64,000 nt of DNA from Myxococcota bacterium (GCA_036012755.1 DASCPX010000137.1:1-64000); one strand, 5' to 3'; counted from the first letter of the stretch, positions 4,267 to 43,786 are shown. Numbers and translations are program-made. The notes: generated by a model from the sequence alone, not told the origin.

Positions 4267-4275
4267 GCCCGGACT

Positions 4276-27200: not shown

Positions 27201-28841
27201 GAAGGACTGCCAGGCGTCCAGGAAGCTCAGGTCATGGCGCTTCGCAGGCATGAGCGCGGGCTCGGACAACGCCGAGGCCAGCTGCGCTGCGACCTCGCGG
27301 ATGCGGTTGCTCCAAGACGACAGGGGCCTCCCCGGCAGCTGGTTGCGCAGGCTGAAGAGCCAGCGGTCGACGTCGTCGAATGGAGTGCGCGCGGGGGTCG
27401 TCGCCCGATGTCGAGCCGGTCGCAAGAGCTCCGGGTCGTAGTCCCAGCCCGCCGCGTCCAGCACGTTGCAGAGGGCGCTGAGAACCCCGGAGTCCCAGGC
27501 GGCGCCTCCCTCGTCGAGGCGGTCCTCGCGGATCCGGATGAGCAGGTCCACGGGGACGCGCAGGTCGCTGGGGAAGTCCTCGGCCTGGCCGGCCTCGATC
27601 ACCCACTCCAGGACCTCGGCGATGCGCTCCGGACGCAGGAAGGAGCGCAGGCTGGCCTTTGCATCCTCGTCGGCGAAGACCAGGAGCGGCTCCGGCCGAT
27701 CGCCGAGCTCCACCCGGCGCAGCATGCCCGAGGTGATGGCCTCTGCGATGTGGAGGCGGGTGAGTCGGGCTTCGCCGACCAGGCGGGTTCCCAGGGCAAC
27801 CAGCAGCGAGTGGTCGATGGCGGCGCCGGGCACAGAGGCGGCCAGGGCCAACAACTCCAGGGACTCCGGACTGGCCCCCCGAGCGAAGCGGTGGGCGTGC
27901 TCCACCCAGTCGAGGATCGGCTCTCGTTCTCTCCGCGGCCGCTCCCTCCGCGGCAGTCTCCGGGCCAGCAGGGAGCCTGCTCCACGACCGTGCGCCCAGG
28001 ACTCGAGCGGGCGAATGCCCTCTGGAGAGAGCTCCACCAGCGGCAGGCGAATCTCTGAGGGGTCGACCTGGCCGGGCCTGAGCCTGCCGAGGCGAAGTCG
28101 GTCGGCCGGGGTCCTTCGCCACGCCCCCCGGGTCCAGGGGTGGAGCCATGCGATGCGGGTGCCGGAGGGCAGCTCGGCCAGTGCCTGCGCCAGAGCGCCG
28201 CCTCGGATCACGTGGCTCACTCCATCGGAGACCAGCAACACGAGGTTGTCGAGCCCCGGACGCACCAGCCGCCGGAGCTCCAGCTCGCTCCCGCCACCGA
28301 TACGGCCACGGGAGACGCCGGCGAAGCTGCCGACCTCTTGGGCGAGCTCGACGACCCGGTCGCAGAGGTCCCGCCAGGGAGTCATCGAGGCGCTGCGGTC
28401 CTCGACGATGACGAGGTGGATCCCGGGCTCCCGTCTCGGCCGCAGCTCCAGGCGGATGTCGTCTGCGGCGGCGCTGGCCCTCACCGTCGCCTCGACGTCG
28501 AGCTCCTGGTGGCTCGGGCTCTCCCGGGTGCTCGCGAGTCGGTGGAGCCCTCGAGCCAGCGCTCTCCGGTCGCGCAGCGGCAGTGGCCTCGGCAGGGACA
28601 GGCGCAGTCGCTCGGCGCCGCCGCCCGGCGTGGTCTCCTCTGCGCCGATGCCTGCCTCTACCTGGCTCGTGGCGTCGGGCTCGGTCTTCGGGGCCCTTTG
28701 GCGGGGTGGAGAGGGCGACGTCCTGGCAGGCGGATCCTCGCAGAGGTCCTCTCGCGTGGGCTCGCTGGCGGAGGGCTCCACCGGTCCTCGCAAGCGACGC
28801 AGCCACAGGACCTCCGCGATCTCCCGGGGCGAGAGCGTCAC
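24279..28841 (-). CDS. SAV_2336-type vWA-like protein with NERD/PD-(D/E)xK-like, zinc-ribbon and Sel1-like regions
   Basis: EIAEVLWL, LDVEATV, EDRSASMTPW, LLVSDGVS, HPW..AWRRT; ELDAVLLHPTMGVVALDIK; CPDC/CRDC; Sel1-like helices; C-terminus DDDIPF. Confidence 0.82.
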   Translation of the reverse strand: MTLSPREIAEVLWLRRLRGPVEPSASEPTREDLCEDPPARTSPSPPRQRAPKTEPDATSQVEAGIGAEETTPGGGAERLRLSLPRPLPLRDRRALARGLHRLASTRESPSHQELDVEATVRASAAADDIRLELRPRREPGIHLVIVEDRSASMTPWRDLCDRVVELAQEVGSFAGVSRGRIGGGSELELRRLVRPGLDNLVLLVSDGVSHVIRGGALAQALAELPSGTRIAWLHPWTRGAWRRTPADRLRLGRLRPGQVDPSEIRLPLVELSPEGIRPLESWAHGRGAGSLLARRLPRRERPRREREPILDWVEHAHRFARGASPESLELLALAASVPGAAIDHSLLVALGTRLVGEARLTRLHIAEAITSGMLRRVELGDRPEPLLVFADEDAKASLRSFLRPERIAEVLEWVIEAGQAEDFPSDLRVPVDLLIRIREDRLDEGGAAWDSGVLSALCNVLDAAGWDYDPELLRPARHRATTPARTPFDDVDRWLFSLRNQLPGRPLSSWSNRIREVAAQLASALSEPALMPAKRHDLSFLDAWQSFEHLAIGARQAASRPDARLPDPPEMNPPPPLPVHPDHGDVLGQLFGPALRTMELVFAADLGVLGQWFEQQMRLLASGLGPEALAHIDAVCPEGWEVLGGDRFELDAVLLHPTMGVVALDIKRGLSHKIPLAPVHRRALSLAAPLVRPRLRRHIRAAVLVQGDPPRLHEVRSDGLRELDDPRAWFDEAAHEDDQLEILSLVGLVRARLNGIEPPEWARCPDCDGIRVSAGRVFVEGGPSIFLVEEATDEAEFSVAGKSLSFQSQKIRYEPTLHRYLVCRDCAHHWPFPGEEEVDRERVPRNIAGRPPDGLHGAYLAKVLGGYDPVPTPAWLTERIGGTPAGSAIALDDEYLFDSRSFDLPDALPELGAGVPDELERWRKDIDDFGDDPEIIAWDFPDPSGETTGPALLSLLQERLHGRLQDTDTWSARGRGQAVLKRRRLHLLHVKIHKHHIAVSLRSRCFYAHFSPGLLRIDGTTSKSWFYEEPTLKGPGAVVQFAEELLDEWVRADEVLQAAREAAVDDPAAARVLGVALLRSAGFHAGGLEPDEAFEHPNRWLETSGVSSSVGPMRRIVHVEEGERWLRRAIDEGDAEAAEALGLHALSVCGEIGPEETKELLLQASEAGRASASAALAGAHDRGDIEDDRGILHWLHLAGLAGVASARERWAHRVLDQAAIGVTETLPTGAPELAVEWLEDLAEEDQEVAARLLIRQLHGFGVEPRPEAAERLRALAENDDGIARALAMRLAAGCPGLSADPEEARSIAVGTMPLSAAAGADRQRRWPILDPQALDDPEPYTFLFDSPLDFAVALLFGGDALFDPYFLLRSTWRMEEPWWLDVRALGLEPPDCSALRPVAMDYLEDLLRSGRELGAGTTRGLLHQLAEGGEGERADRLAADMWTLGGPSARLGAVIHWLDARPPRRREPAKGMLRELALHDRSAMQELERRLETGDLEPLEVGELAEVKRQLATPDDDIPF

Positions 28842-29803
28842 CTCCGGTCGCGCTTCAGGCTCTGCATCGCGTCCTCGACCGGCGCCCCGTGGCCCGCGTT
28901 CAGGAAGAGGGCCTGAAGGAAGACGTCGGTGGCCTGGTCCGGGTGCTCGTGAAGTAGCGAGGCGATCTCCTCTTCGGAGACCACGTCGCCGAGCTGCTGC
29001 TGCACGATGCGGTGGAGGTGGGCGCCGGTGGGTCGGCGCAGCTCGAGCTGGACGCAGCGACGCAGGAAGGCCGGCGGGAACTCCCGCTCCTTGTTCGAGG
29101 TGATGACCACCACGGGGTGGTGGTGGGTCCGCACCCGCCCACCGGAGATCGGCACCCGATCCGACTCTCCGCCACAGTCGCTGGGCCAGACGAGCTCGGT
29201 GCCGTCGGAGCGCGCCAGCTCGTCGACGCGGAAGGCCCCCTCTTCGAAGACGTGGAGCAGGTCATTGGGCAGGTCGTAGCTGGACTTGTCGAGCTCGTCG
29301 ACGAGCAGCACGCGCGGCTCGGCTGTCGGCAGGAGCGCCGTTCCGAGGGGGCCCAGGTGGATGAAGTCAGCGATCCCGGATTCGCCCTGTTCCTTGATGG
29401 CGCGGAGGTGATCGACGGCGTCGTAGCTGTAGAGCCCGTCTGCCAGCGTCGTGCGCGAGTTGATCTCCCAGCGCAGCACGGCCCCGAGGCGGAGCACGTG
29501 TGCCAGGTGGTAGGCCAGGGAGGACTTGCCGATGCCCGGGTCGCCGGTCACCAGCAGCGGTCGGCGCACCAACAGCGCGATGTTGATGCGGTCGGCTTCG
29601 TCGGGCCCCTCCTCCCCCTCCTGGCGGAAGAGCGAAGACGACACGTAGTTGCGTCCCCGTTGTTCATGGGGTTTCGGCGCTGGGACCTCTCGTTCGACGT
29701 TTGGCACCGCCTGTGGGCATCGCCACGGCGGAGCCTTCTTCAGCCAGCGCTGCCGACTCTCGTCGGACACCGGGTTTCGAGGGTCGTAGATCCTCCAGCT
29801 CAT
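28838..29803 (-). CDS. MoxR AAA+ ATPase of the vWA-MoxR-VMAP ternary type
   Basis: MSWRIY start, RRPLLVTGDPGIGKSS, LGPLGTALLP, LLVDELDKS.DLPNDLL, ITSN.EREFP.AFLRRC. Confidence 0.92.
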   Translation of the reverse strand: MSWRIYDPRNPVSDESRQRWLKKAPPWRCPQAVPNVEREVPAPKPHEQRGRNYVSSSLFRQEGEEGPDEADRINIALLVRRPLLVTGDPGIGKSSLAYHLAHVLRLGAVLRWEINSRTTLADGLYSYDAVDHLRAIKEQGESGIADFIHLGPLGTALLPTAEPRVLLVDELDKSSYDLPNDLLHVFEEGAFRVDELARSDGTELVWPSDCGGESDRVPISGGRVRTHHHPVVVITSNKEREFPPAFLRRCVQLELRRPTGAHLHRIVQQQLGDVVSEEEIASLLHEHPDQATDVFLQALFLNAGHGAPVEDAMQSLKRDRR

Positions 29804-31278
29804 CACAACTCCACGGCTTCCCAGGGGATGTAGGTGCGGTCGTCCCAGGCAGCGGTCACGCGTGTTGTCGCGTTGTTCCGGATGCGAGTGACCGCGTCGA
29901 AGATCTCTCCGAGGGGGCGGGCGTCTCGCCCTTCGAAGAGGGCCTCGTGGCCGCCCTCGCCCAGGATGAAGGTCGCCACGCAGCCCTCTGCGCGCTCCAG
30001 CAGTGCGCAGATCTCCTCCGGACAGCCCGCGGCGGAAGGAAGGGCGATGACACACTTGATGTCGGGATCCGGCCCGGCGGCGCGAGCCTCGTCGAGGCAG
30101 GTGACCACGCGGACGTTGGCGTCCGGCGCTGGGGGCAGGATGGCCGGCTTGCGGAGCTCCGTGCGCTCCGGCTCTTCCTCCGGAACGGGCTGCACGACCA
30201 GGCAGCGGAAGTAGGTCCCCAAGACCCGGTCCCTGTGGGAGTAGGTCTCATAGGGCGTCGCAGCCTCCTCGCTCGCCACGCTCAGCTGCAGCACGTAGTC
30301 CACGCGGGGGGCCGCCCTGAGCCGGTTGGCCACCTTCTTCGCCAGGGCGATGTAGTCCCTGGGCTCACGCAGCGGTCTGTCGAAGACGAGGCTCTCCAGG
30401 CCATCCGCTTCGTGTTCCGGCCACAGGACCTTCGCCGAGTGGAAGAGCACATCGTCCCCGTCGTGGTCGAGGCGCAACCACACGGTCCGGATGCGCCTGG
30501 CGTGGCCACGGCCCGAGCGGCGGTTGACCGCCAGCCACTGGCGCAGATCTTCGGCGAGGGCGCCCTCCGAGAGATCGTGGAGCTGACTGGCAAGCTCCAG
30601 CAGGTGCCCCTGACCGGCCTGCCGGCGCTTGGCGAAGCCCTTGGCGACGAACTCGAGGGCCTGCTTGTCGCTCTTGTGGGCCAGGAACTCCATGCCCCGG
30701 TCGCCTGCGAGCACCCGCCCGGCGAGGGCCTCCAGGGCTTCTCTGCCGGCTCCCAGGGCGCGCGCATCCACCCTCGAGATCAGGGTCGTCGCCATCAGCA
30801 GCGACCGGTCGCTCTTCTGGGTGTGTTCGAAGACCGAGACGAAGTCCGCTCCGAGCAGCTCCGCGGTCGTCCGGAACGCTCCGCTGCAGATCCGCAGCAT
30901 CTCCTCGATCTCTTCGTAGGTGATCCGGAGCTCGTTGGGGTGGGCGGCGGTGTGTCGGATCCCGTACGCCGTCTGCCAGTAGGTGAGGGTCGGGGGCAGC
31001 GGCCTGCCCTCGTTCCGCGCCCAGTTGACGAGGGACTCGAAGGTCCCCGCCGTCGGCGCCCCGAGGTGTTCGCAGAGTGCGTCGTAGAGGTCCTCTGCGA
31101 ACTTGCCGATCTCCACCGCCGCGTAGCCGGGATGGCCAGCGTTCTGGCATCGCTCAGAGAGCGCGGGCAGCAGGGCGTCGACCATCTCCGGGGGGCCCTC
31201 GACGAGCTTCGGAGGGTAGCAGACGCTCGCAGCGGGGTTCAGCGCCAGGAGGTGGTAGCGAGTCGGTGCTGTTCGCAT
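29803..31278 (-). CDS. VMAP-like protein with putative N-terminal HEPN-like domain
   Basis: Directly upstream of MoxR; C-terminal AAWDD..YIP resembles VMAP-C ends; N-terminal RHTAAH (Rx4H). Confidence 0.7.
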   Translation of the reverse strand: MRTAPTRYHLLALNPAASVCYPPKLVEGPPEMVDALLPALSERCQNAGHPGYAAVEIGKFAEDLYDALCEHLGAPTAGTFESLVNWARNEGRPLPPTLTYWQTAYGIRHTAAHPNELRITYEEIEEMLRICSGAFRTTAELLGADFVSVFEHTQKSDRSLLMATTLISRVDARALGAGREALEALAGRVLAGDRGMEFLAHKSDKQALEFVAKGFAKRRQAGQGHLLELASQLHDLSEGALAEDLRQWLAVNRRSGRGHARRIRTVWLRLDHDGDDVLFHSAKVLWPEHEADGLESLVFDRPLREPRDYIALAKKVANRLRAAPRVDYVLQLSVASEEAATPYETYSHRDRVLGTYFRCLVVQPVPEEEPERTELRKPAILPPAPDANVRVVTCLDEARAAGPDPDIKCVIALPSAAGCPEEICALLERAEGCVATFILGEGGHEALFEGRDARPLGEIFDAVTRIRNNATTRVTAAWDDRTYIPWEAVEL

Positions 31279-31279
31279 G

Positions 31280-31993
31280 TCATCGGAGAGCCCCCTCCGT
31301 GAGCCTCCGGACAGTCCAGGCCCTGACGCCGAGCTCGTCGACGAGGAAGCTCCGGTAGTGAGGGGGCTGGCGCTCCGCGAGGGTGGTCATGACCTGGTAC
31401 AGCCGGGTCCCTCGTGGGTGGCTCGCCAGCACATGAGCCAGCGCGATCTGCACCAGGGCCTCCTCGCTGCGCTTGCCCGCGGCTCCGGTGCTCGCGACCC
31501 CGTGGGCAGCGTGGAGGAGCTCGTGCATCCAGACGAGCTCCGCGACATCGGCGAGCTCCCACTGCTCGGGCAGATCGATCGACAGCTCCCAGATCTGCTC
31601 CAACCGAGCGGGACAGAGCGCGACCACGGGGGCCCCGGCGAAGGGTGGGAGCTCGGGGAAGTGGTGCTGCAGGCCGGCGGTCCGCCCCAGCCGAGTGAAG
31701 ACCCCTGCCGCCGCGAAGCGCCGCAGATCGGGCAGGAGTTCCCTGAGCACGTTGTCCCGCTCCAGGGGGTCGATCGGGAGGTCCATCTCGCCCGAGGCCA
31801 TGAGCCGAGGCGGGTAGAGCCGGTCCATGAGCTGCTCGTCGACCAGCCAGGTGACGGGGAAGGGGCGAGGCAGCAGGTGGCGCTCGCAGAGGACCTCACG
31901 GAGCTCCGGCGAGCGCTTGTCGAGCTCGGTGACGAGGTGCGCGGCGAGGGCGTCTCCACGCAGCGAAGCCTGGGTGATCATCAGACCCACCAC
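31280..31993 (-). CDS. Putative zincin-like metallopeptidase
   Basis: HELLH (HExxH) followed by SEEALVQ. Exact start uncertain. Confidence 0.65.
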   Translation of the reverse strand: MVGLMITQASLRGDALAAHLVTELDKRSPELREVLCERHLLPRPFPVTWLVDEQLMDRLYPPRLMASGEMDLPIDPLERDNVLRELLPDLRRFAAAGVFTRLGRTAGLQHHFPELPPFAGAPVVALCPARLEQIWELSIDLPEQWELADVAELVWMHELLHAAHGVASTGAAGKRSEEALVQIALAHVLASHPRGTRLYQVMTTLAERQPPHYRSFLVDELGVRAWTVRRLTEGALR

Positions 31994-32748
31994 GGCCTCC
32001 GTCGGTTGGGGTCCTCGCGCTTGCCGGTGAGCCAGGGGAGGTCCTCGGTCGTCAGCGGGGGCAGGTCGCCGAACCAGGGCATGCCGGGGACCTCGGCTCG
32101 CGAGTCCAGGTCGTAGTAGCGAAGGCGCAGGTTCTTTGCGATGTTCCAGGCGAGGTCGTTGCGCCGGATCAGCTCGGCGAGCTCCTCGTCGACGTCGTCG
32201 TAGTACTGACCCCAGGACCCCTCCTCACGGAGCTCCGGCAACAGATCGGCTGCCTCGTGGGTCACGGCTCTGCACTCGTTGCGCAGGCGGATGACCTCTG
32301 CGAGCTCCTCGATGTCGTCCTCGGGCACGAGCGGAAGGACCCAGGGGCGCTCCTCGGCGACCGACACCAGCTCCTGGGTGCGGCCACGGATGTTCCTCTC
32401 GGTGAGCTGGTGGTGGAGCAGGCCCACGAGCTCGTCGGGGTCGAGCAGGCCCTCGAGGGTCTCTGTCTGCAGCAGCTCCTCCCACCTCCTCCCAGAGTCC
32501 TGGAGTCGATGGAGGATCCTCCTGCGCTCCGCATCGTCGGTCCAGCGGGTCAGCGCCGAGCGAGCAACGGCCAGGCTCTGGCGCACGTAGCTGCGTTCTC
32601 TGAGTACACCCCAGAGGGCCGCGCTTCGCCGAAGTCCGGGCCGGCCGTAGGCGAACCAGCACCAGCGCTTGCGAAGGCTCGCGAGCTCTCCGAGGTCCGC
32701 CAGGGCCAGGCCGAGCTGGTGCTCGTGCTTGCGCGTCAGTCGCGCCAT
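31981..32748 (-). CDS. Hypothetical helical protein
   Basis: AGGAGG upstream of ATG at 32748; overlaps both neighbours. Confidence 0.7.
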   Translation of the reverse strand: MARLTRKHEHQLGLALADLGELASLRKRWCWFAYGRPGLRRSAALWGVLRERSYVRQSLAVARSALTRWTDDAERRRILHRLQDSGRRWEELLQTETLEGLLDPDELVGLLHHQLTERNIRGRTQELVSVAEERPWVLPLVPEDDIEELAEVIRLRNECRAVTHEAADLLPELREEGSWGQYYDDVDEELAELIRRNDLAWNIAKNLRLRYYDLDSRAEVPGMPWFGDLPPLTTEDLPWLTGKREDPNRRRPWWV

Positions 32749-33749
32749 GTGTCCTCCTGGTGGTAGACCTCGACGCCGGGCTCGGGGTGTCGTCCCAGCC
32801 ACTTCGCGAAGTCGTCGATGGCGGCGGTCACTGCGAGGGGGTTGTAGGTGCGGCGGCGCTCATCGGCCTCGAGCCGCTTCTCCAGGGCTCCCACCCCCTG
32901 GACGGGGCGGTAGCAGGTCCGGAGCTGGAAGAGGCGTCGCTTCTCCGGTGACAGGGACAGGGTGACGCCGTCGTCGTCGATGTAGCACTCGTTCTGGAGG
33001 CGACCGCGGGATCGCAACGAGTAGACGCAGTGTCGAGGTCGGAGCCCGGCTTGTTCCGCGGCTCGCCAGATCCGGTCTTCGTAGGCGGCGATGACAGCTG
33101 TCCCCGCCAGGCGGGCCTCGATGTGATCGAGCCAGCCTTCGATCCAGAGGCCGCGAGGTGGACTCTGCATGAAGCGGAAGGCCCTGCCCAGGGAGCGCCT
33201 CGCCGACTGGGACAGGCTGCGGTCGATCCAGGCGCAGAGTTCCATGAAGCGGGGGTCAGCAGCGGCCTCCTCGGTCAGGGCTCGGTCGCGGCGCAGAGCC
33301 TCTCGCACGTGCTCCCAGAGCCCTTCCCGGCAGAGCAGTCGCGCTCGCCTGCGCGCGGCCTTCGGCAGGCCAGCGGTGTTCCCCAGGATGTGCAAGCGCG
33401 CGTCATCGTTGGGGGATTCGTCCAGGAAGGCCAGGGTCACGTCGTCGAGGTCCAGCGGATGGCGGGCCAGCAGGACCTGGTGCGTGAAGAGCAGCTCGGG
33501 CTGTTGGCTGAGGGCCACGGCGCGCTCGTGGGCCTCCAGCACGTCTTGTGTGCAGGAGGTCCAGGTTCGCATCGTGTCGACCCAGCTCCGATCCAGCGTC
33601 GGCAGGTTCATCTCCAGGACCTCGCCCCAGTCCTCGCTGTCGCGCAGGACGTGCTTCAAGACGTGTCCCAGGAGCGCGGACCGGGGCATGGGCTGGACGT
33701 GGCGGAGGCTCAGCCGACCATCAGCCGTGCGACGGGGGAAGTCCTTCAC
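32736..33749 (-). CDS. Hypothetical protein, candidate toxin RNase
   Basis: GTGA overlap with the upstream gene; HVLKH near the N-terminus and LRTCYRP near the C-terminus. Confidence 0.65.
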   Translation of the reverse strand: MKDFPRRTADGRLSLRHVQPMPRSALLGHVLKHVLRDSEDWGEVLEMNLPTLDRSWVDTMRTWTSCTQDVLEAHERAVALSQQPELLFTHQVLLARHPLDLDDVTLAFLDESPNDDARLHILGNTAGLPKAARRRARLLCREGLWEHVREALRRDRALTEEAAADPRFMELCAWIDRSLSQSARRSLGRAFRFMQSPPRGLWIEGWLDHIEARLAGTAVIAAYEDRIWRAAEQAGLRPRHCVYSLRSRGRLQNECYIDDDGVTLSLSPEKRRLFQLRTCYRPVQGVGALEKRLEADERRRTYNPLAVTAAIDDFAKWLGRHPEPGVEVYHQEDTWRD

Positions 33750-34273
33750 GAGGCTCCCCACCAGGCACCCTCTGCCTTCTTCGCGGCGAGGAGTCGTGGA
33801 TGTTCCAGGTCGAAACGCCGGGCCTGCAGTCGTCGGTCGAGGTCGTGGAAGCATGGAGCCGAGGCGCCGACATTGCGCAGCGCCACCGCCAGGCTCTCGA
33901 GCTCGTCTCGGCGCAGCAGGGCAGCGGGGTCCTCTGTATCCAGGGCCTCGGCTCGCTCGCCCACCTCGGCCACGAGGGCCGCGCGTTGCCGCTGGTCGAG
34001 GCGAGCCCACCAGTCGACGAGCTCGTTTCGCGAGGGCATGCCCTGGCCGGCGAGGAGTTGTCGCAGGCGGTCTCGGCGGCCCTCGGGGCTGGTCGCCCTG
34101 TCGAAGCGCTCGGCATGGCCCAGGGCCAGCAGGCCTCCGACCATGGTGCCTTCGGATAAAGCGACCTCGAGCTCGGCGTTGAGCCAGGTGGGAGCGTCCG
34201 GACAGAGCAGGTCCGGCCCGCGGAGTCCATTGGGCTCGGCGGGCTGGGAGTGCAGGCGGTCTATGTCAGTCAT
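33746..34273 (-). CDS. Hypothetical protein, candidate anti-sigma partner
   Basis: Overlaps the sigma-like gene; helical, RRDELES ... WW. Function inferred from position only. Confidence 0.65.
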   Translation of the reverse strand: MTDIDRLHSQPAEPNGLRGPDLLCPDAPTWLNAELEVALSEGTMVGGLLALGHAERFDRATSPEGRRDRLRQLLAGQGMPSRNELVDWWARLDQRQRAALVAEVGERAEALDTEDPAALLRRDELESLAVALRNVGASAPCFHDLDRRLQARRFDLEHPRLLAAKKAEGAWWGAS

Positions 34274-35581: not shown

Positions 35582-37675
35582 TCAGTAGCCGATCTGTGAG
35601 GCCATCTCGGACAGGCCGTCGGCCTCGGACTCGACCGCCTCGATCCAGGCGGCGAGGACCTCGTCGATCCTGGTTGCGAATGACGGCAGGTCCCCTCGGT
35701 AGCGCCGCGCTGCCTGGAGGAAGCCCTTCTTCTTCTTCGGGCGGCGACCCAGCAGCAGGTCCGCTCGTGGATGGTGGGCCGCGACCTCCAGCCACGCGGC
35801 GAGGCCCACGAGCTCGAGCACGGTCGTGCTCGGGAGCTTCAAGAGGGCCGTGAGCGTGCGCTCCGCAGCCGCGGGGTCTCCGGTCTCGGCCTGCAGCGCC
35901 GCCAGCTGCCGGCGGATGCCATGGGCCGGGTAGCCGAGCCCGGCCTCTGTGACCCAGGAGTCCCCGGCGCAGCGAAGGCCGAGGGGGTCCCTGGCGATGC
36001 GGGTCAGGCGCAGGAAGTGCAGCAGCGCGAAGCCCCGGGGAAAGCCTGGCAGTCCCTCGATGTGGTCCAGGATCATCTCCCGGGTCGCGGTGGGCTCCAT
36101 GCCGATGCCTCGAGCCAACCAGGCTCCGGCCTCGTCGAGGTTTCCGGCCCAGGTCTCGAGCTGGGCCCGGTACTGGCACTGGCGCTGGATCTGCGTCGGC
36201 TCGCCGAACTCGGAGAGCGCCTGCTCGGAGAGCGCCCGGGCCTTCTCGAAGCGCGAGGGGTCCCGCAGGCCAGCGTACATCTCGGCCTGCAGCTGGGTCC
36301 CCAGGGCCTTCGCCCGCTGGGCGGAGTGCTGCACGACTCCCTCGACGAGATCCGCTGCGAAGGCGGCGAGTCCCTCGTGGTGGGCCTGGAGGTTGGACAT
36401 CGCCGTCGACGCCACGTCGTGCTCCAGGCAGTCCGTGTGGTGAACGGCCTTGGCGACCAGGGCCTCGCTCACGAGCTCGAGGTGCTCCTGCCGAGCCAGG
36501 ACCGAGGGCAACAGCGCCTCCACGCGGTGGACGTGGCCCCGTGCGTCCTCGAGGCGGCCGTCGTGGTTCGCCGCCGTCAGGCGCCAGCGGCACAGTGCCA
36601 GCTCGAAGGCTGGAAGGCTCGGGCCCTCGACCCGCCCTTGGAGGCCCTCGACCAGGGTCCGACTCAGCCAGGTGGCGACTCGCTCTCCGACCACCAGGTC
36701 CCGTTGGGTCTCGATGATCGTGTCGAGCCAGTGCTCGAGCTGCTGGAGCTGCACGGCCCTGGCGGGTCCGCCCATCTGTGCGAGTCGCGCCAGGGCAGGC
36801 TCGATTCGTCTTTGCGCTGCCCTGCGGAAGCCCTCGGTCGTGCTCTCGGCCACGAGCATCGGCGTGAGGAGCTGCAGCGCTCGGGCGACGGCCCCATCGG
36901 CCAGGGCCTCGTCGGCCTGCTCCACGAGCGGTCGCACCTCCAGGCTCCAGTCGGTCTCGCCGAAGGCCCTGCGCAGGGCCTCCTCTGCCCTGGGCTGTAA
37001 GGGGGAGAAGTCGTCGTGGCTGCCGTGGCTCAGGAAGTCGGCCAGCTGTAGGCCCCGGTCCTTCACAGAGCGGAGCTGCACGCGAACCGACCAGCCAGCG
37101 GCCTCTTCCGCCAGTCCGCGTCGGATTGCCGTGAAGCCCAGGTGCTCCCGCACTCGGCGCTGGAAGTCCTCTTCCTTCATCAGCTCGGGGATGTCGAGCT
37201 CCTCGTCGACGGTTCCGATGCGCACGTTCCCGCAGATCACTCGCAGCTCGACGCGCTCGGCTCCCTTGCGCCGGTGGTGATCCAGCAGGCGCACGACGAG
37301 CTCGGCGACGGCGTTGGTCTGGTTGGCGACCCGGTCTCCCCAGCTCACTCCTTCCAGGTTCGCCAGCCGCACCGCTCTCCAGCCTCGCACCTCCAGGGCC
37401 GCCTCCAGCTTCGGGAACGCGGCCTGGTAGCGGCCAGGATCCTTCTGCTTGAGGTCCACGGCGTGCGCGATCGCCGGGAGCTGGCCGCCGAGGATCTGTC
37501 GGAGCACCTGCTCGGCGTCGCGCTTGAGCTCGCCTGCCGGGGCGCAGACCCCCGCCAGCTGCGAGGGAAAGCGCCGCCGGGACAGATCGGCGCTCAGCTT
37601 TTCTCGAGGTTCCGTCGAGGTCTCTGAGAACTGTCCGCTCTCGTCGAGGAACAGCTCCAGCTTCAAGACGGCCAC
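35582..37675 (-). CDS. DUF3800-like (RNase H-fold) domain fused to a TPR-like helical region
   Basis: N-terminal LFLDESG and later LQLADFLSH; helical-repeat C-terminal two-thirds. Start uncertain (GTG 37675 chosen). Confidence 0.72.
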   Translation of the reverse strand: MAVLKLELFLDESGQFSETSTEPREKLSADLSRRRFPSQLAGVCAPAGELKRDAEQVLRQILGGQLPAIAHAVDLKQKDPGRYQAAFPKLEAALEVRGWRAVRLANLEGVSWGDRVANQTNAVAELVVRLLDHHRRKGAERVELRVICGNVRIGTVDEELDIPELMKEEDFQRRVREHLGFTAIRRGLAEEAAGWSVRVQLRSVKDRGLQLADFLSHGSHDDFSPLQPRAEEALRRAFGETDWSLEVRPLVEQADEALADGAVARALQLLTPMLVAESTTEGFRRAAQRRIEPALARLAQMGGPARAVQLQQLEHWLDTIIETQRDLVVGERVATWLSRTLVEGLQGRVEGPSLPAFELALCRWRLTAANHDGRLEDARGHVHRVEALLPSVLARQEHLELVSEALVAKAVHHTDCLEHDVASTAMSNLQAHHEGLAAFAADLVEGVVQHSAQRAKALGTQLQAEMYAGLRDPSRFEKARALSEQALSEFGEPTQIQRQCQYRAQLETWAGNLDEAGAWLARGIGMEPTATREMILDHIEGLPGFPRGFALLHFLRLTRIARDPLGLRCAGDSWVTEAGLGYPAHGIRRQLAALQAETGDPAAAERTLTALLKLPSTTVLELVGLAAWLEVAAHHPRADLLLGRRPKKKKGFLQAARRYRGDLPSFATRIDEVLAAWIEAVESEADGLSEMASQIGY

Positions 37676-37704
37676 GGGGTGGAGACTACCGCCCCGCCCT
37701 TCGC

Positions 37705-37902
37705 TCAGGGGTTCACGTCGATGTCGAAACATCCGGGCTGCTCCGGGCACTCGTCCCAGTTCTCCGTGTCCCCGTGGAGGGGGCGGAGGGCGCCGAGGAT
37801 GACTCCGTCCTCTTCCATGGCTCGCGCGGCCTCGACCAGGTCCAGCTGGCGGTAGCCGTTGGCGCGGTTGAGGCGGAGCACGATCTTGGATTCGAGGTCC
37901 AT
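37705..37902 (-). CDS. Small protein (65 aa)
   Basis: AAGGAGA RBS just upstream of ATG; first gene downstream of motif B. Confidence 0.7.
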   Translation of the reverse strand: MDLESKIVLRLNRANGYRQLDLVEAARAMEEDGVILGALRPLHGDTENWDECPEQPGCFDIDVNP

Positions 37903-37965
37903 GTCTTCTCCTTTTGGGTGTGTCGGCAGCGGCCCATCCGTTGCTTCCACCCTTTCTGGAGGAGC

Positions 37966-37997
37966 GGGCTCCGGGATCCGGACAAAGAAATCTGGAC
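37966..37997 (-). promoter_or_regulatory. Conserved upstream motif B (candidate ECF promoter)
   Basis: Repeat of motif A, in the divergent intergenic region. Confidence 0.7.
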
Positions 37998-38018
37998 GAC
38001 CCGTGTTTTCATTGGCCG

Positions 38019-38843
38019 GTGCCTGTCGATCTGGCCACGCTCGCGCCGCTGTTGCGGGGGACCTATGGGGGTCGAGATGCGGCCGCGGCGGTGATCTGGG
38101 AGCACGGCCTCCCCACGATCCAGCGCATCGCGAGGAGGCTGCACCAGAAGAGCCCTGGTTTCTTCTCGCGGCATGTCGGCAACGCCGAGGCCCTGGGCAT
38201 GGAAGCGGTGTCGGAGCTCATCCGCCGGGCCGAGGAGGAGCAGGGCCTGCCGCTCGACAACAACTGGGCTCGCGGCGACAGCTACCTCGCGCGCGCGACC
38301 CTGGACACCATCCGGGCCCTCGCGAAGCGGTACCGCCTCCAGGAAAAGCGGGAGTCCAGCGCGGCTGGCGAGCCCGAGCTCGAGCTCGACCGACCCTGGT
38401 TCGACCGCGTGGGCACGCACGATCGGTTGCGGTCGAGGCTGCACACCGACGAGCCCTTGAGCCGGGACCGGGCCCTGGGCCTGCTGGTCGAGGTCCTTGC
38501 CGCAGTGAAGGGCTTCAAGGCCCTGGCATACCTGCTGGACCGCTTCCCCCCTGGCGTGGATCGCCCCCTGGTCTCGCGGGCCTCGTCGGACTCCACCGCC
38601 ACCCGGGGCCTGGCCCGCCCGGAGCCCGAGACCTGGGAGCTCCTGGTGGACTGGCGCGAGCGCCATGGGCGGCTCACCGTCTTCGCCGCAAACCGAGGTG
38701 TCGCCTGGGTCCTTCGCACATCCGATCAGACGAACGCCGAGACCTTCTACCTCAAGCACCGGGCGGCCATGACCACCGCCATGGACGCGGTCCTGTGCTG
38801 GCGCAGGGACGTCGAGGCCCGGCTTGGGGAGGCGCTGTCGTGA
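38019..38843 (+). CDS. Divergent ECF sigma-70-like protein
   Basis: Region-2-like IQRIARRL..NAEALGMEAVSELI..SYLARATLDTIRALAKRYR; degenerate region-4-like ETFYLKHRAAM. Start uncertain. Confidence 0.55.
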   Translation: MPVDLATLAPLLRGTYGGRDAAAAVIWEHGLPTIQRIARRLHQKSPGFFSRHVGNAEALGMEAVSELIRRAEEEQGLPLDNNWARGDSYLARATLDTIRALAKRYRLQEKRESSAAGEPELELDRPWFDRVGTHDRLRSRLHTDEPLSRDRALGLLVEVLAAVKGFKALAYLLDRFPPGVDRPLVSRASSDSTATRGLARPEPETWELLVDWRERHGRLTVFAANRGVAWVLRTSDQTNAETFYLKHRAAMTTAMDAVLCWRRDVEARLGEALS

Positions 38844-38876
38844 TCTTCTGTCCGGATTCGCCGGCTCGGTGCTCCT
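38842..38876 (+). promoter_or_regulatory. Conserved upstream motif C (candidate ECF promoter)
   Basis: CTTCTGTCCGGAT-N14-CTCC, followed by AGGAGG and ATG at 38896. Confidence 0.55.
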
Positions 38877-38895
38877 ACGTCACCAGGAGGCTCCG

Positions 38896-39858
38896 ATGAT
38901 CGACCGAGCAGACCTCGTCCAGCGTCTTCGCAGCCGCGGCGCCCTGGCGCTGCAGGGCCTGCGTGGCGCGCCGACCGTCGAAGCCCTGCGCGTCGCCGGC
39001 GTGGCCGAGCTCCTCGGCGAGGCCGACTGTCCGAGCGATCTGCGCACCCTCCACGCCGAGCTCAGGGCCGCGCCCCTGCCCGACCGCCCTGCCCTGATGC
39101 CCTTGAGCTTCCAGCTTCGGGACGGGGATCTTCGTGAGGACGACCTGCTCGACTTCCTGGTGCTCAGCGCCCTCGCGCCGCGCCTGCCTCCCTGGGCAGC
39201 GGAGCGAGCCCAGGACGCGCTCGACGACGTGCTCATCGAGGCCGAGGACCACAGGGATCTGCTCGCCAGGGCAGAGGAGCTCCGCGTCCAGCTCGGGCCT
39301 GCCTCGGGCACGCCGCTGGCTGACCTGCTGCAGGACCTCGACGCCCTGCGGCGAGACACGGCGCTGGTGCCCACGGAGCTGCTCGCCGCGGCGTTCCAGC
39401 CTCGAGGTCTCGGCGCCTGGGCTGCCGTGCTGCGTGCCTCGATGGCGGACCTCGCAGAGGAGTTGCGCGAGCGGGCCGCCGAGTTCGCCGACGAGCTCGC
39501 CCAGCTCGGCGCTCAGCCCCAGCTCGTCACCGCGGACGAAGGCCTCGGTCTGCCCAGCGCTGACGTGCTCGTCTACTGCGATGGGGACAACGAGGTCTTC
39601 CTCGCGTGCTCCCGCCAGCGGCTCTACCTGGAGGTCCGGGGTCCCTGGGCTGCCGATCTCACGGTGCGGATCGGCGTGATCACCCTTGACCAGGTCCCGC
39701 CCTTGTCGCCCGACGACGAGGACGTCGTGACCTGGGCGCTGCCAGATGACCCGGGAACCCCGATGGCTCCTGACATCGGCCACGGTGGAGCTTCCACGCA
39801 CAAGCTCTTCCTCGACATCCCGGACGAGGGCAGCATCGCGCTCCCGATCCGCCTGTGA
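38896..39858 (+). CDS. Hypothetical protein, candidate anti-sigma / protease substrate
   Basis: AGGAGG RBS; helical N-terminal part, linker, beta-rich C-terminal part; lies between the sigma-like and protease genes. Confidence 0.7.
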   Translation: MIDRADLVQRLRSRGALALQGLRGAPTVEALRVAGVAELLGEADCPSDLRTLHAELRAAPLPDRPALMPLSFQLRDGDLREDDLLDFLVLSALAPRLPPWAAERAQDALDDVLIEAEDHRDLLARAEELRVQLGPASGTPLADLLQDLDALRRDTALVPTELLAAAFQPRGLGAWAAVLRASMADLAEELRERAAEFADELAQLGAQPQLVTADEGLGLPSADVLVYCDGDNEVFLACSRQRLYLEVRGPWAADLTVRIGVITLDQVPPLSPDDEDVVTWALPDDPGTPMAPDIGHGGASTHKLFLDIPDEGSIALPIRL

Positions 39859-41423
39859 ACCCGACCGAGCTCGAGCGCTGGTGGAGACATGCCCCCGGTG
39901 CCTGTCTGCGCGTCGCCGAGAAGCTGGCCTGCGGCAACTCCAGTGAGCGCGCCCGGGGCCGGCACCTGAGCTCTCGGATCGCGCTGCTGGACCTCAGGCC
40001 TCGAGTCGGTGTGGCCTGGTTCCCGGTCGTCCACCAGCCCGGTGGGGCCGTCGAGGGCTTCCTCGTCCAGGTCGTCGTCGGCGGCGGTCGGCCGATAGAG
40101 GGCGCAGAAGCCCTGGCCGCCTGGTTCGGGGGCCTCCTCCCCGAAGCCGAGGCCGAGGTCCGCGCACTCTCCATCGGCATCGAGGGACTGCCCGAGGGCT
40201 TCGAGGTGCGAGGTCACTCCTTGCAACTCGCGGCCGCGGAGGCCCTCGTCTCCCACTTCCTGCAGCGGCCTGCTGCCTCGGCCCGAGTCAGCTCGGGCGG
40301 CCTGGGAGCTGACTTCTGCGCGCTGTCCCCCATCGACCAGGTCGCGGTGAAGCGCCGCATCTGCGCCCTGGAGGCTCCCGGAGCGGTAGCCACGGTCGTC
40401 GAGGCGTCCGCCCACCTGGAGCTCTCTTCGGCCTTCGGGAGCGCCTGGCGGGGAGAGCTCGCGGCGGCGCTCGGGGCCTCTGCGAGCGCCCTGTCTCGCG
40501 ACGCCCGTCGGGCCTACCTCGATAGGAAATACCCACGGGCCGAGAGGCTCGCGGAGCTCGCCCTGGACACGGAGGATCTACCCCTCGCCCGCTGGGTGCG
40601 CGGGGCCTGCAGGGTCCACCGGGGCGAGCAGGGACTCGAGGATCTCGAGCTGGCCTTCGAGGCGCTCCGCCACAGCGAAGAGGAGGCCTGGCTCGGCGAG
40701 GAGCTCGAGGCCTTCCTGGGCATCGCGCTGTTGGACGAGCTGCGCCCCGTCGAGGCGAGGCCCCGGCTGGAGCGGGCGCTCGCGCGCCTCGAGGACGCTC
40801 GACGAGACCGGCGCTTCAGGGAGGTCGCGGTCCAGGTCGCCGGCACCCTCCGACGAGTCCTGCAGCTCCTGGGCGAGGTCGAGGACGCCCTGCAGGTCCA
40901 CCAGACCTGGGTCCTCGGCCATGCCCACCAGGACCACGAGCACAGCCGCGCCCTGATCGAGAGCGCCGCCCTGGAGCTCGCCCTGGAGCGACCCGGTGTC
41001 GAGCGGACCCTGGAGCTGGCGGAGCGACAGCTCGCTCACTGTTCCTCTGACGAGCGAGCGGTCACCCGTCGGTACATCGAGGTGCAGCGGGTCCGAGCCG
41101 GGCTCTCCAGCTCGGCTCGCAAGGGCGAGCCGCCGGACTGGTCGGACTTCCCCCAGCCCCTGGAGGCCCTGGCCGGGCTCTGTACCGAGGAGCTGGAGAG
41201 CTGGCTCGACGACTACGTCGATCTCGCCACCCTTGGATGCGCCATGCACCTGGTATTGCTCGGCGCAGCAGCCCGATCGGGGCCCGTTCGCCAGGCTCCC
41301 GAGCTCGTGATCTGCTTCAGGGAGCGGACGGGCCCGGAGCGGCTCGGCGCAGCAGCATGGAGCGCGCTCGCTGCGCTGGAGGCCGGAGATTGCGCCCCCT
41401 GGAGGCGGCTGGCCCCCTACTGA
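39855..41423 (+). CDS. Lon-type (S16-like) Ser-Lys protease domain fused to TPR-like repeats
   Basis: VRGHSLQLAAA ... SSGGL ... LSPIDQVAVK with Lys 44 residues after Ser; no AAA module; GTGA overlap with the upstream gene. Confidence 0.7.
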   Translation: MNPTELERWWRHAPGACLRVAEKLACGNSSERARGRHLSSRIALLDLRPRVGVAWFPVVHQPGGAVEGFLVQVVVGGGRPIEGAEALAAWFGGLLPEAEAEVRALSIGIEGLPEGFEVRGHSLQLAAAEALVSHFLQRPAASARVSSGGLGADFCALSPIDQVAVKRRICALEAPGAVATVVEASAHLELSSAFGSAWRGELAAALGASASALSRDARRAYLDRKYPRAERLAELALDTEDLPLARWVRGACRVHRGEQGLEDLELAFEALRHSEEEAWLGEELEAFLGIALLDELRPVEARPRLERALARLEDARRDRRFREVAVQVAGTLRRVLQLLGEVEDALQVHQTWVLGHAHQDHEHSRALIESAALELALERPGVERTLELAERQLAHCSSDERAVTRRYIEVQRVRAGLSSSARKGEPPDWSDFPQPLEALAGLCTEELESWLDDYVDLATLGCAMHLVLLGAAARSGPVRQAPELVICFRERTGPERLGAAAWSALAALEAGDCAPWRRLAPY

Positions 41424-43010
41424 TCAGGGCTCGAGCTCGCCCGCCTCGATGGTCCAGGAGGCCAACTCGACGCCGTCCACGTCGTGCAGGGTGGCCACCA
41501 GCTGATCGCTGGAGACGACCATGCCGATGAAGAACACGCCCTCGTCCTCGCAGACCGTCCAGCTCTCCTCCTGGCAGGGACTGTTCCAGGTCGCCAGCGG
41601 AGACGAGGTCAGCTCTGGCAGGTCGTAGCTGGCTCCGGGCAGCAGCCGGAACTCCGAGCGGTGGACGTCGCCCGAGAGCAGGACCAGCCCGGGCACATCC
41701 GCCGTGGCCTCCAGCAGCGCAGTCCAGTCCTCTGGGAAGTTGGCCCAGGAGTCCTCCGAGCCTTCCTGGGTGAACTGGCTGCCGCTGGCGACGAGCTTCC
41801 AGGTCGCGGAGCTGTCGTGGAGCGCCCCGACGAGCCAGGCGGTCTGCTCCCCGCCGAGCATGCTGTCGTCCTCGCCGCGGTGGCTGCGGTCGTCGAGGAG
41901 GAAGAACTCGACCTCTCCGACGACGTGGCGGGAGGGGATGGTGTTGGCCCAGTACTCGTCGAAGACGCGCTTGGCGACGTCGCCTCCGGGGTCGCTCGCG
42001 TCGGTGTTGTTGCCGACGTAGTCGTGGTCGTCCCAGGTCGCGACGATCGAGGTCTCGGCCAGCATCTCCCGGCGCTCGTCCCGCTCGTGGGCCCAGCGGT
42101 ACCACTGACGTAGAGCACCAAGATCGTTCGTGTTTGCGTAGTGGTTGTCCCCGATGAACAGGAAGACGTCAGGCTCGTACGCGCGAATCGCCGAGAAGAT
42201 GGGCTGGTCGTCGTCCTTGCTGCAGGAGCCGAAGGCGATGCGCAGCTGCTCCGCTGGCTCCTCCACGGTCCACGGTCCCAGCGTCTGTCCCTCGATCTCC
42301 AGGGAGTACTCGAAGGGAGGGGCGATGCCCTCGAGCACGACCTCCTCCGCGAAGTCGTCCGCGGCCAGGGGGTAGCCGATGTGTCGCAGGCGCCCGTCCA
42401 CGCTGAGCTTCACCTGTCGGGTCGCGTCCGTGCGGTACCAGATCCGCACGCCCTCCGCGGTGACCGGGCCGACCAGGGGGCCGTGGGTGAGGGGGGTCTC
42501 CCAGCAGCCCAGGCAGTCGAGCACGGCGGCCTCTGAGAGGCTGGCGACCTCGTCCTCGTCGTCGGTGCCGAGCTTCACCTCGTAGTCGCTCTTGCAGTGG
42601 ATGGGCTCGCCGTCGAAGCTCACCGCGATGCATCCGGGCCGGTACTGGTCGCCGCCGTCGTCGATCGACCAGGTGAGATCCTGGACATCCGCCCGGGACA
42701 GCCCGAAGTCCTCTTCGACGTGCACGTCGACGATGCCGTGCTCGTTGTCGTTCCAGTCGGGCTTCGCCAGCTCCAGGCAGTGCTCCTCGCCGAGGCAGAG
42801 GGTGAGCACGTCGTCGGTGCCGCTGTACTCGCTGGTGTCAGAGGGCAGCATCGTCACGTGGAGGACATCGATGACCTCTGGGAACTCGGGCATGCCGGGG
42901 TCGGGCACGCCCTCGCTGTCGGGGCTGTCGCCCTCGCTCTCGACCACGACGCTCTCGTCGGGGGGCACGCCCGAGGGGGCACAGGTGCAGGACCAGAACA
43001 ACGCGAGCAT
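41424..43010 (-). CDS. PhoD-family alkaline phosphatase with N-terminal extension
   Basis: IAFGSC, FIGDNHY, TWDDHD, LLDDRSHR, LLSGDVH. Start re-called at MLALFWSC. Confidence 0.9.
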   Translation of the reverse strand: MLALFWSCTCAPSGVPPDESVVVESEGDSPDSEGVPDPGMPEFPEVIDVLHVTMLPSDTSEYSGTDDVLTLCLGEEHCLELAKPDWNDNEHGIVDVHVEEDFGLSRADVQDLTWSIDDGGDQYRPGCIAVSFDGEPIHCKSDYEVKLGTDDEDEVASLSEAAVLDCLGCWETPLTHGPLVGPVTAEGVRIWYRTDATRQVKLSVDGRLRHIGYPLAADDFAEEVVLEGIAPPFEYSLEIEGQTLGPWTVEEPAEQLRIAFGSCSKDDDQPIFSAIRAYEPDVFLFIGDNHYANTNDLGALRQWYRWAHERDERREMLAETSIVATWDDHDYVGNNTDASDPGGDVAKRVFDEYWANTIPSRHVVGEVEFFLLDDRSHRGEDDSMLGGEQTAWLVGALHDSSATWKLVASGSQFTQEGSEDSWANFPEDWTALLEATADVPGLVLLSGDVHRSEFRLLPGASYDLPELTSSPLATWNSPCQEESWTVCEDEGVFFIGMVVSSDQLVATLHDVDGVELASWTIEAGELEP

Positions 43011-43018
43011 CCGAGTCC

Positions 43019-43786
43019 CTAACGGGCCAGGGCTGCCTCGATGGCATCGCGCACAGCGTCGGCGTTGTATTGGCGCGCCATGTAGACGATCCGCCCCTGT
43101 CGATCGACGAGGATCTGGAGCGGGAAGGGCGCGTAGCCGCCGAGCGCGCTCGTGTCGTAGGATCGGTAGACCGAGCCGTCCGCGTCGAGCAGCACGGGGG
43201 ATGTGAGCCGGTTCAGGTCCGAGTCCATGACCACGAGCCCCTCGTCCAGCGCGCCGAGCAGCACGACGCCGCCGTCGGCCGAGATGTCCTCGTGGAAGCC
43301 CTCCGTCACCCATCCGGGGAGATCGACCGGGGTCGGGGTGTCGGTCGAGACGTCCACGACCACGATCCGGTCGGCCCTGGTGGCGAAGAAGGCCCGCTGG
43401 GTGTCCCTGTCCACGGCGACGCGGTAGGTCCGCCCGGAGCTGTGCTCGGCCAGCCGCACGTGGTTCTCCAGGTCGTACCAGGCCCACCCGGAGACCCCGG
43501 CGACGATGGCCCGGGTCTTGTCGATGACGACGGCGTCCAGCCACTCGACGTATGGCTCCAGCTCTCCGTCGACGGTCTCGATGGGGTCGCCGAGGACGAG
43601 GGGGAGCTCTACCTCCGGCTCGTCCGTGTCGGGGGAGCTGTCGTATGTGGGCGACCCGCTGTCGCAGGTCGGGTCGGAGGCCACCGGGTGGCAGGCGCCG
43701 TCCGCGGCTCGAGCGAAGCCACGGAGGCAGGGCTCGCGGCAGGCGAAGCTCAGGATGCCCAGGAACACCTCTGCAGGATGCTCCAT
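43019..43786 (-). CDS. Hypothetical protein: partial beta-propeller joined to a redoxin-like C-terminal fragment
   Basis: Beta-repeat segments, then PVLLDADG..PFPLQILVDRQGRIVY with no redoxin N-terminal half. Confidence 0.6.
   Translation of the reverse strand: MEHPAEVFLGILSFACREPCLRGFARAADGACHPVASDPTCDSGSPTYDSSPDTDEPEVELPLVLGDPIETVDGELEPYVEWLDAVVIDKTRAIVAGVSGWAWYDLENHVRLAEHSSGRTYRVAVDRDTQRAFFATRADRIVVVDVSTDTPTPVDLPGWVTEGFHEDISADGGVVLLGALDEGLVVMDSDLNRLTSPVLLDADGSVYRSYDTSALGGYAPFPLQILVDRQGRIVYMARQYNADAVRDAIEAALAR

Follow-up and report, generated by a model that had tools for sequence, protein, structure and literature searches.

Freeing a dedicated sigma factor by proteolysis is the logic of two tripartite protease/anti-sigma/sigma systems, CalpL-CalpT-CalpS and Craspase, which are both named in the accessible part of bioRxiv 10.1101/2024.05.08.593097 and which, as far as that part goes, are both wired to type III CRISPR signals. 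Is this logic confined to these systems, or can it also be built from other proteins? The question is raised by three adjacent genes, referred to as g1, g2 and g3, at positions 38019-41423 of a 64,000-nucleotide stretch of DNA from a Myxococcota bacterium (GCA_036012755.1 DASCPX010000137.1:1-64000; hereafter, the window). A first-pass annotation of this stretch had described the genes as a co-directional triad of a sigma factor, a putative anti-sigma factor and a Lon-type protease with a tetratricopeptide repeat (TPR) domain, and as a CRISPR-independent counterpart of the CalpL cascade. Based on the analyses described here, we suggest that the three genes probably form one operon encoding a protease-gated transcription switch and that, by analogy, this cassette is most likely a CalpL/CalpT/CalpS-like proteolytic sigma-release switch made of different proteins. 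The features of the locus are as follows.

38019-38843, plus strand: g1, an open reading frame (ORF) of 274 residues for a predicted divergent sigma factor resembling the extracytoplasmic function (ECF) type
38896-39858, plus strand: g2, an ORF of 320 residues for an acidic, cytosolic partner protein; candidate anti-sigma factor and protease substrate or adaptor
39855-41423, plus strand: g3, an ORF of 522 residues for a putative Lon-type protease with a TPR tail
39855-40454, plus strand: N-terminal Lon-type (S16) protease domain of g3, residues ~1-200
40218-40220 and 40350-40352, plus strand: codons of the catalytic-dyad candidates S122 and K166 of g3, read from the sequence
40467-41423, plus strand: C-terminal TPR array of g3, residues ~205-522, with a conserved ...PY tail
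38885-38890, plus strand: Shine-Dalgarno-like AGGAGG, 6 nt before the g2 ATG, likewise read from the sequence
37951-38018, strand unassigned: short region 5' of g1, common to the divergent minus-strand genes and the presumed site of the operon promoter

All three ORFs lie on the plus strand and have a coding-type G+C content at third codon positions (GC3) of 0.85-0.86, matching the other genes in the window (overall G+C ~70%), which bears out the description of three co-directional genes. The stop codon of g2 and the GTG start of g3 overlap as GTGA; in the operons of relatives, starts and stops overlap by 4-11 bases, ATGA being among these overlaps. No match to a sigma-70-type promoter was found within 37500-41800. 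We also considered as a promoter element a 9-mer common to the window and one related locus (L012) and rejected it, as it occurs 12 times in the window with at most one mismatch versus 11.9 expected occurrences.

The string RGHSLQLAAA...SSGGL...PIDQVAVK, from which the first-pass annotation had proposed a Lon-type Ser-Lys dyad, is present in g3 and places S122 and K166 44 residues apart. A word-index search with g3 returned one relative, P0002 (35% identity, E 1e-35), which carries the NCBI name 'S16 family serine protease', passes the Pfam Lon_C cut-off (24.3 bits versus 21.1) and also has weak TPR matches. An exhaustive HMMER search starting from the pair of g3 and P0002 yielded a family of at least 87 representatives, 87 being found at E<=1e-3, with 58 at E<=1e-30. 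Four columns are invariant in the 60-member alignment of this family, i.e. S122, K166, G330 and R365; because S122 and K166 are conserved in 60/60 aligned relatives, the Ser-Lys pair in g3 is more than a chance occurrence. Scanned one by one, three of the 60 members match Pfam Lon_C, and the window protein by itself is below Pfam significance for both Lon_C and TPR. At the level of profiles, the whole family matches dozens of Lon proteases in the PDB with E ~1e-7 over profile positions 66-190, and a profile of the first ~200 residues gives 51 matches, 50 of which are to the Lon family, with E. coli Lon as the best (E 1.3e-7). These Lon-family matches include LonA, LonB, LonC, mitochondrial Lon, the Lon-like domain of RadA and CalpL, the latter reaching E 0.04 only. 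In the alignments, the Ser of Lon GPSAG is matched by the invariant Ser of g3 and the final K of Lon KEK by its invariant Lys; we take these Lon residues to be S679 and K722 of the E. coli protein, and hhalign of the g3 family against the canonical Lon from a related genome reproduces the same Ser/Lys register (E 2.3e-5). Clusters nearest g3 in the Atlas are unnamed or carry Lon_C in 24% of their members. We conclude that these alignments support the assignment of g3 as a Lon-type Ser-Lys protease with S122/K166 as the predicted dyad, in line with the original proposal.

The protease domain of g3 begins near residue 1 of the 522-residue protein. An AAA+ module was detected neither in g3, as had been noticed for the window protein at the outset, nor in any of the 60 family members (E<=0.01), and the family is also devoid of a SAVED domain, which is likewise absent from the other two proteins of the triad. 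Canonical Lon (LonA/LonB, MEROPS S16) and BrxL share the protease-domain family with g3, with the Ser and Lys aligned. However, LonA and LonB carry an AAA+ module, whereas g3 ends in a TPR tail, and the Lon domain of BrxL is without the dyad according to the available portion of PMC12839542, whereas the dyad is invariant in the g3 family.

The TPR-like C-terminus that had been suspected from the window protein is real at the family level: TPR_12 is matched by 32 of the 60 members scanned, and the family profile matches designed TPR proteins with E 4e-28 over profile positions 216-290. This region contains the other two invariant residues, G330 and R365, and conservation reaches at least 90% at H255, R414 and the terminal Y522. 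The proteins end in PY or PYG in 47/60 members, with the terminal Tyr 95% conserved (41415-41423 in the window). Overall, conservation of the TPR region is on a par with that of the protease core, the mean top-residue frequencies being 0.41-0.46 and 0.42, respectively. Because of this parity and because the polar residues H255, R365 and R414 as well as the PY tail are kept, its ligand is probably a constant one rather than a diversifying phage protein. The PY tail could have its docking site in the TPR groove or in the active site.

Next to this putative protease, g1 has the features of a sigma factor. A word-index search with g1 alone found no relatives, and a search of the same index with a g1 profile found three, to one of which JGI gives the name sigma-24 family protein; nine homologues from related loci align with g1 over the full length. 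All five PDB matches of the g1 family profile are to ECF sigma factors, SigE, SigK and CnrH among them, and cover region 2; Pfam Sigma70_r2 is matched by three of the nine members (best E 2.5e-4) and Sigma70_r4 by none. The AlphaFold2 model of g1, generated with an 11-row alignment, has a mean predicted local distance difference test (pLDDT) score of 83.8 and consists of two helical domains connected by a linker, as follows.

g1 residues ~1-115: region-2-like domain
g1 residues 117-134: disordered linker of 18 residues, pLDDT <50
g1 residues ~143-274: region-4-like domain with extra helices

In a wide search with VIA-align, which is independent of Foldseek, this model ranked sigma factors almost exclusively. 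Residues 1-115 superimpose on region 2 of sigma factors (Z 6-6.7, root-mean-square deviation (rmsd) ~3 A, 83-100 residues), with Z 6.5-6.7 for SigE, RpoE, SigW and sigmaE, and residues 143-274 on region 4 (61-68 residues, Z 5-6.3, rmsd 1.8-2.2 A), so that roughly half of the 130-residue C-terminal domain aligns to region 4. The best region-4 match is that of sigmaE on -35 DNA (Z 6.3, rmsd 2.0 A, 65/69 residues), and region 4 of SigL (Z 5.8, rmsd 1.8 A) and of SigC and SigR (Z 5-5.8) was also matched. Each of these scores is modest; nevertheless, because two domains match regions 2 and 4 in the correct order and the sequence hints agree, we call g1 a putative divergent ECF-type two-domain sigma factor, an assignment supported by the model and the profiles and in agreement with the first-pass annotation.

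The third protein, g2, has 56 Asp and Glu versus 28 Lys and Arg residues and no transmembrane-like stretch. Its AlphaFold2 model (22-row alignment) has a pLDDT of 75 and the following parts.

g2 residues ~1-205: helical-repeat domain
g2 residues 207-220: low-confidence linker
g2 residues ~224-318: beta-sandwich domain

By tblastn, g2 was not found in relatives; a gene of similar size occupies the g2 position in each related locus. A hidden Markov model (HMM) made from seven of these positional relatives matches window g2 over nearly its full length with E 3.3e-8, and the next best of the 342 other ORFs in the window only reaches E 0.2. With this HMM, 12/12 long g3-family proteins tested (595-994 residues) are matched over their N-terminal ~250-345 residues (E 1e-29 to 2e-11), from which we conclude that g2 also occurs fused to the N-terminus of the protease. 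Foldseek with the g2 model gave no match at E<=1e-3, VIA-align gave generic helical-repeat and Ig-like matches only (Z <=6.3), and the g2 profile had no match among solved structures. Pfam scans of ten g2 members gave no consistent family (0/10) and no MazF-like or DUF2080 match at E<=1, and nothing in the Atlas scored above 0.85, with faint sub-threshold leads to zf-HC2 clusters (score 0.76; TM 0.30). Judged by its sequence and predicted structure, g2 is a new family with a helical repeat and a beta-sandwich.

How are the three proteins connected? Prediction of the g1-g2 complex gave an interaction prediction score from aligned errors (ipSAE) of 0.86 (0.89, 0.84 and 0.86 in the individual runs), and the best of three controls gave 0.00; in a benchmark, the mark for this score was reached by 116/157 solved complexes and by 2/215 mismatched pairs. 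At least 74% of contacts are common to the runs, and the partner has a pLDDT of at least 71. On the g1 side, the predicted interface comprises residues 36-41 and 80-95 in the sigma-2 domain and 149-179 and 220-273 in the sigma-4 domain; on the g2 side, it comprises residues 102-167 in the helical domain. In this prediction, g2 contacts both sigma domains of g1. Class I anti-sigma factors bury both domains of their sigma factor, as this modeled interface does. The role of g2 as an anti-sigma factor, which had originally been proposed from position and architecture, thereby gains the predicted g1 binding and the protease fusion, whereas a known anti-sigma domain was not recognized.

Based on these data, our working model is that the helical domain of g2 would wedge against the sigma-2 and sigma-4 domains of g1 and keep g1 off RNA polymerase, and that g2 would be the constant companion of g3 and, in some lineages, its N-terminal portion. 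The g3 protein would act as an ATP-independent Lon-type protease with the TPR domain as its regulatory or input module. On a cue, g3 would cut an exposed segment, for which the likeliest target would be the g2 linker at ~207-220, and the cut would free g1, which would then redirect transcription. In this model, we infer that g3 is active and cuts g2 rather than g1, that the TPR domain receives the signal and that the output of the cassette is transcription.

We also considered the opposite polarity, in which g2 is a delivery or regulatory subunit of the protease and g1 itself is cut, e.g. in the linker between sigma2 and sigma4, such that the sigma factor is switched off or kept low. The fusion of g2 to the protease in all 12 long members tested is what would be expected of a protease subunit, the predicted binding of g2 to g1 would suit delivery, and the poorly structured g1 linker at 117-134 would be accessible to an ATP-independent protease. 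However, the modeled burial of both sigma domains in the style of a class I anti-sigma factor argues against this reading, and g2 has a low-confidence linker of its own. Moreover, the partner and not the sigma factor is cut in both known tripartite systems, as described in the accessible text of bioRxiv 10.1101/2024.05.08.593097. Altogether, we consider cleavage of g1 unlikely and favor sigma release by cleavage of g2.

The proposed sigma release resembles the CalpL-CalpT-CalpS cascade in that both combine a Lon-type Ser-Lys protease that lacks an ATPase and carries a fused non-catalytic domain, a soluble sigma-binding partner (for g2, binding is predicted) and a sigma factor that is ECF-like. 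The spacing of the dyad is also similar, with 41 residues in CalpL (S152-K193 and S154-K195 in the parts of bioRxiv 10.1101/2024.05.08.593097 available) and 44 in g3. The two differ in several other respects. The fused domain is SAVED in CalpL versus TPR in g3, and no cyclic-nucleotide sensor was found in the g3 family; the partner CalpT consists of MazF-like and DUF2080 parts, according to the same partial source, versus the helical repeat and beta-sandwich of g2. The gene order of the cassette, sigma factor-partner-protease, is unlike that of CalpL-CalpT-CalpS, and canonical Lon (E 1e-7) is a closer match for the g3 protease domain than CalpL is (E 0.04). Finally, CalpL-CalpT-CalpS is tied to type III CRISPR, whereas most copies of the cassette lie away from CRISPR. 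CalpT is absent from the fold matches of g2, a missing match that leaves a distant kinship possible. We conclude that the cassette is most likely an analogue and not a CalpL derivative with a swapped sensor. Of the original idea that TPRs replace the SAVED sensor, a mostly CRISPR-independent analogue is retained, whereas direct replacement does not agree with a g2 of no recognized kinship to CalpT and a Lon domain closer to canonical Lon.

Craspase (TPR-CHAT/Csx29, Csx30 and CASP-sigma/RpoE; type III-E) is similar in that, in the portion of the description available, a TPR-bearing protease cuts a sigma-bound partner. Its protease, however, is a caspase-like CHAT protease activated by RNA-bound Cas7-11, whereas g3 is Lon-type, has no CHAT domain and usually has no Cas partner. 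Our comparison with the mechanisms of the CalpL and Craspase cascades also draws on the accessible parts of PMC11229360.

As a further test of the suggested unit, we compared gene order by tblastn in 13 sources, i.e. the window and 12 loci, two of which (L012 and L037) are near-identical and represent one lineage. In agreement with the expectation that the triad would be conserved in other genomes, g1 lies upstream of g3 in 10/13 sources with the order g1-(gx)-g2-g3. Two others (L034 and L022) are cut by contig ends and retain g2; in the remaining one (L036; G147:C12, 41% G+C), g3 has unrelated upstream genes and neither g1 nor g2. Specifically, within 3713-8656 (minus strand) of this locus, the g3 homologue (543 residues) follows a 473-residue P-loop protein and two proteins without assignment. 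Because this g3 adjoins unrelated genes in the absence of g1 and g2, the Lon-TPR protease can pair with other modules. The three-gene form is present in the window, in L012/L037 and in L038. In six loci, a well-conserved protein of ~180 residues with the N-terminal motif EHLGLSHTLKHYLRPQEMW, which we refer to as gx, is encoded between g1 and g2, as follows.

L011, 1013-1588: gx
L010, 6755-7300: gx
L031, 5914-6456: gx
L032, 5372-5947: gx
L033, 3206-3757, minus strand: gx
L035, 5858-6412: gx

For gx, we found no match in Pfam or the PDB and no copy anywhere in the genome of the window. Among 401 sampled genomes of the phylum, g2 was found in seven, one of which belongs to another class; the locus of the latter (L048) contains clear copies of gx, g2 and g3. 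We considered the ORF lying upstream of gx in this locus as g1 and left it uncounted (weak profile match with hhalign E 0.006 and probability 6%; no HMMER match).

Because of the origin of the known cascades, the relation of the cassette to CRISPR deserves particular attention. The triad had been described as being without CRISPR, and this holds for the window, which has no CRISPR array, and for its 95.95%-complete genome, in which Cmr3 was not found; it does not hold for one relative. In this relative (G165), ~320 bp separate the start of a four-gene cassette from a type III-B cmr operon of seven genes, which is divergent from it (Cmr3 E 1e-63, Cas10/Cmr2 E 4e-34), and an array with the 37-nt repeat GTCTCAGTCCCCCTAAAGCGGGGAGGGGGTGTGCGAC lies at the far end of that operon (49-1069, with as many as 9.5 copies in a Tandem Repeats Finder row).

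L039 (G165:C75), 49-9767: CRISPR array and cmr operon, divergent from and directly beside the four-gene cassette

A weak Cas10-palm2-like match on another contig of the window's genome (E 1.3e-6) was not accepted as a type III system, because the control for this family gives a signal in E. coli as well. The arrangement in G165 is paralleled by DdvS/DdvA of Myxococcus xanthus, an ECF sigma/anti-sigma pair that, according to the available parts of PMC6061681 and PMC11506125, is located beside and controls a type III-B CRISPR-Cas/CBASS island. DdvA, however, is a transmembrane anti-sigma factor, whereas g2 is soluble and paired with a dedicated cytosolic protease.

This raises the possibility that the cassette regulates type III CRISPR-Cas or serves it as an accessory arm, in which the sigma factor drives cas genes, as DdvS/DdvA do, or Cmr activates the protease, the copy in the window being orphaned or rewired. 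The G165 locus and the published precedent of a sigma/anti-sigma pair controlling a type III-B locus are what would be expected. Nevertheless, only one of the ten complete loci adjoins cas genes, Cmr3 is present in three of the ten cassette-bearing genomes and adjacent to the cassette in G165 only, and neither an array nor Cmr3 accompanies the copy in the window; in addition, the protease has no nucleotide-sensor domain. We regard a dedicated type III function as quite unlikely, and a sigma-release switch remains our preferred interpretation.

The distribution of the cassette is patchy. Full-length g3 homologues are present in 4 of 41 genomes of relatives, including that of the window itself, and g3 homologues at E<=1e-10 are present in 17/182 genomes of the class and in 0/21 other genomes of the window's own family. 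Except between close relatives, no gene family outside the cassette is common to the neighborhoods. Several neighborhoods consist of ordinary metabolic genes, and in others the cassette is flanked by a 1603-residue NACHT-like NTPase and a DNA methylase, by HipA or by Ser/Thr kinases. In the window, the following three genes lie 18-25 kb upstream of the triad.

13223-15682, minus strand: LmuB-like SMC ATPase (E 1e-19)
15741-18344, minus strand: BrxHI/SngC-like helicase (E 2e-73)
19042-20319, minus strand: BrxD/SngB-like ATPase (PADLOC E 4e-29; Pfam BrxC_BrxD E 4e-37)

This run (13223-20319) may be a Shango-like or BREX-related module. Because the distribution is patchy, the neighborhoods are not conserved and defence-type neighbors recur, the data fit an accessory, mobile and self-contained cassette that tends to sit among conflict genes. 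We also note that four marine-metagenome runs of one further study contain DNA near-identical to 37900-41500 (at least 92% of sampled words), in addition to two runs from which the DNA itself may derive, and the locus thus recurs in independent samples.

These observations bear on a further alternative, namely that the cassette is a housekeeping stress or developmental module with no link to phages or conflict, in which the TPR domain merely scaffolds g1, g2 and g3. High conservation of the TPR domain, with G330 and R365 invariant, is expected for a constant binding partner, and the metabolic character of several neighborhoods and the lack of a PADLOC match would suit such a module. By contrast, its patchy occurrence, down to zero of 21 genomes in the same family, non-conserved surroundings and recurring defence-type neighbors do not, making this alternative very unlikely in our view. 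An anti-phage or stress-alarm role of the switch is plausible and is only suggested by the data. Going further, we speculate that the Lon-TPR protein is an autonomous cytosolic alarm, in which the TPR domain and PY tail would detect a conserved infection or damage cue, g2 would be cut and the private sigma factor would turn on nearby defence genes, including the type III-B operon in some lineages; such a portable device would predate or parallel the CalpL and Craspase cascades and would use no nucleotide second messenger. We hold this extended scenario as a doubtful, if possible, one.

Several observations weigh against a sigma-release switch and temper our confidence in it. For g1, the E values of the profile matches to ECF sigma factors in the PDB are weak (0.03-0.6), the VIA-align Z scores do not exceed 7.3 and are under the tool's caution line of 8 (~13 for helical proteins), and Foldseek gave no match at E<=1e-3 even though sigma factors crowd its list; the region 2 and 4 folds that the first-pass annotation had anticipated were, accordingly, recovered by VIA-align and not by Foldseek. 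For g2, neither fold nor sequence resembles a known anti-sigma domain, CalpT or Csx30. The complex predictor reports model confidence, which supports binding of g2 to g1 rather than demonstrating it, and conservation at the predicted interface does not clearly exceed that of the other residues: for g2, mean conservation in alignment A5 is 0.495 versus 0.434 elsewhere, with 485/10000 random subsets as high, and there is no excess for g2 in alignment A7 or for g1. In the six loci carrying gx, this protein could be the real regulator of the sigma factor. For g3, a Lon_C fold with S122 and K166 adjacent in space is presumed from the alignments, and the conservation of the TPR domain does not fit a fast-diversifying sensor of phage proteins, sensing of a phage protein having been tentatively suggested at the outset. 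With respect to the output, comparison by eye of the regions upstream of ten loci revealed no common two-block motif, and across loci neither a conserved target gene nor a common promoter motif was found. Finally, g1, g2 and g3 of the window, taken singly, match nothing in Pfam, NCBIfam or PADLOC, and phmmer searches with them against solved structures were uninformative; because the window proteins alone match no library family, the family assignments of all three rest on their relatives.

Full-text literature searches found no published description of the cassette, and subscription papers or supplements may hold one. If our interpretation is correct, the cassette follows the same logic as the two described cascades with a different sensor domain, a new sigma-binding family, a very divergent sigma factor and usually no CRISPR nearby, and proteolytic release of a dedicated sigma factor would be a general, portable design of bacterial signaling and not a CRISPR speciality. 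As a compact system of three genes, it would also allow both the TPR ligand as its input and the regulon as its output to be found by ordinary genetics and biochemistry, with the genes beside the cassette copy at the cmr operon as a concrete candidate regulon.

The immediate surroundings of the triad in the window are as follows. Convergent with g3, a PhoD-like phosphatase (E 2e-12) is encoded at 41424-43544 on the minus strand, such that the two stop codons directly abut. Divergent from g1, two ORFs lie on the minus strand. The first (37705-37950; 81 residues) has a coding-type GC3 of 0.82, belongs to no family and was not seen in the other loci. The second (35582-37750) encodes a 722-residue protein that weakly resembles DUF3800 at its N-terminus (E 0.31) and matches TPR_19 (E 2e-4); it is not kept beside the cassette elsewhere and may be a local target of the sigma factor. 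Positions 24279-34010 on the minus strand, located between the run at 13223-20319 and the triad, are occupied by large family-less genes, i.e. a gene for a 1520-residue protein with a sub-threshold VWA_CoxE match, followed by genes for proteins of 491, 237, 273 and 424 residues.

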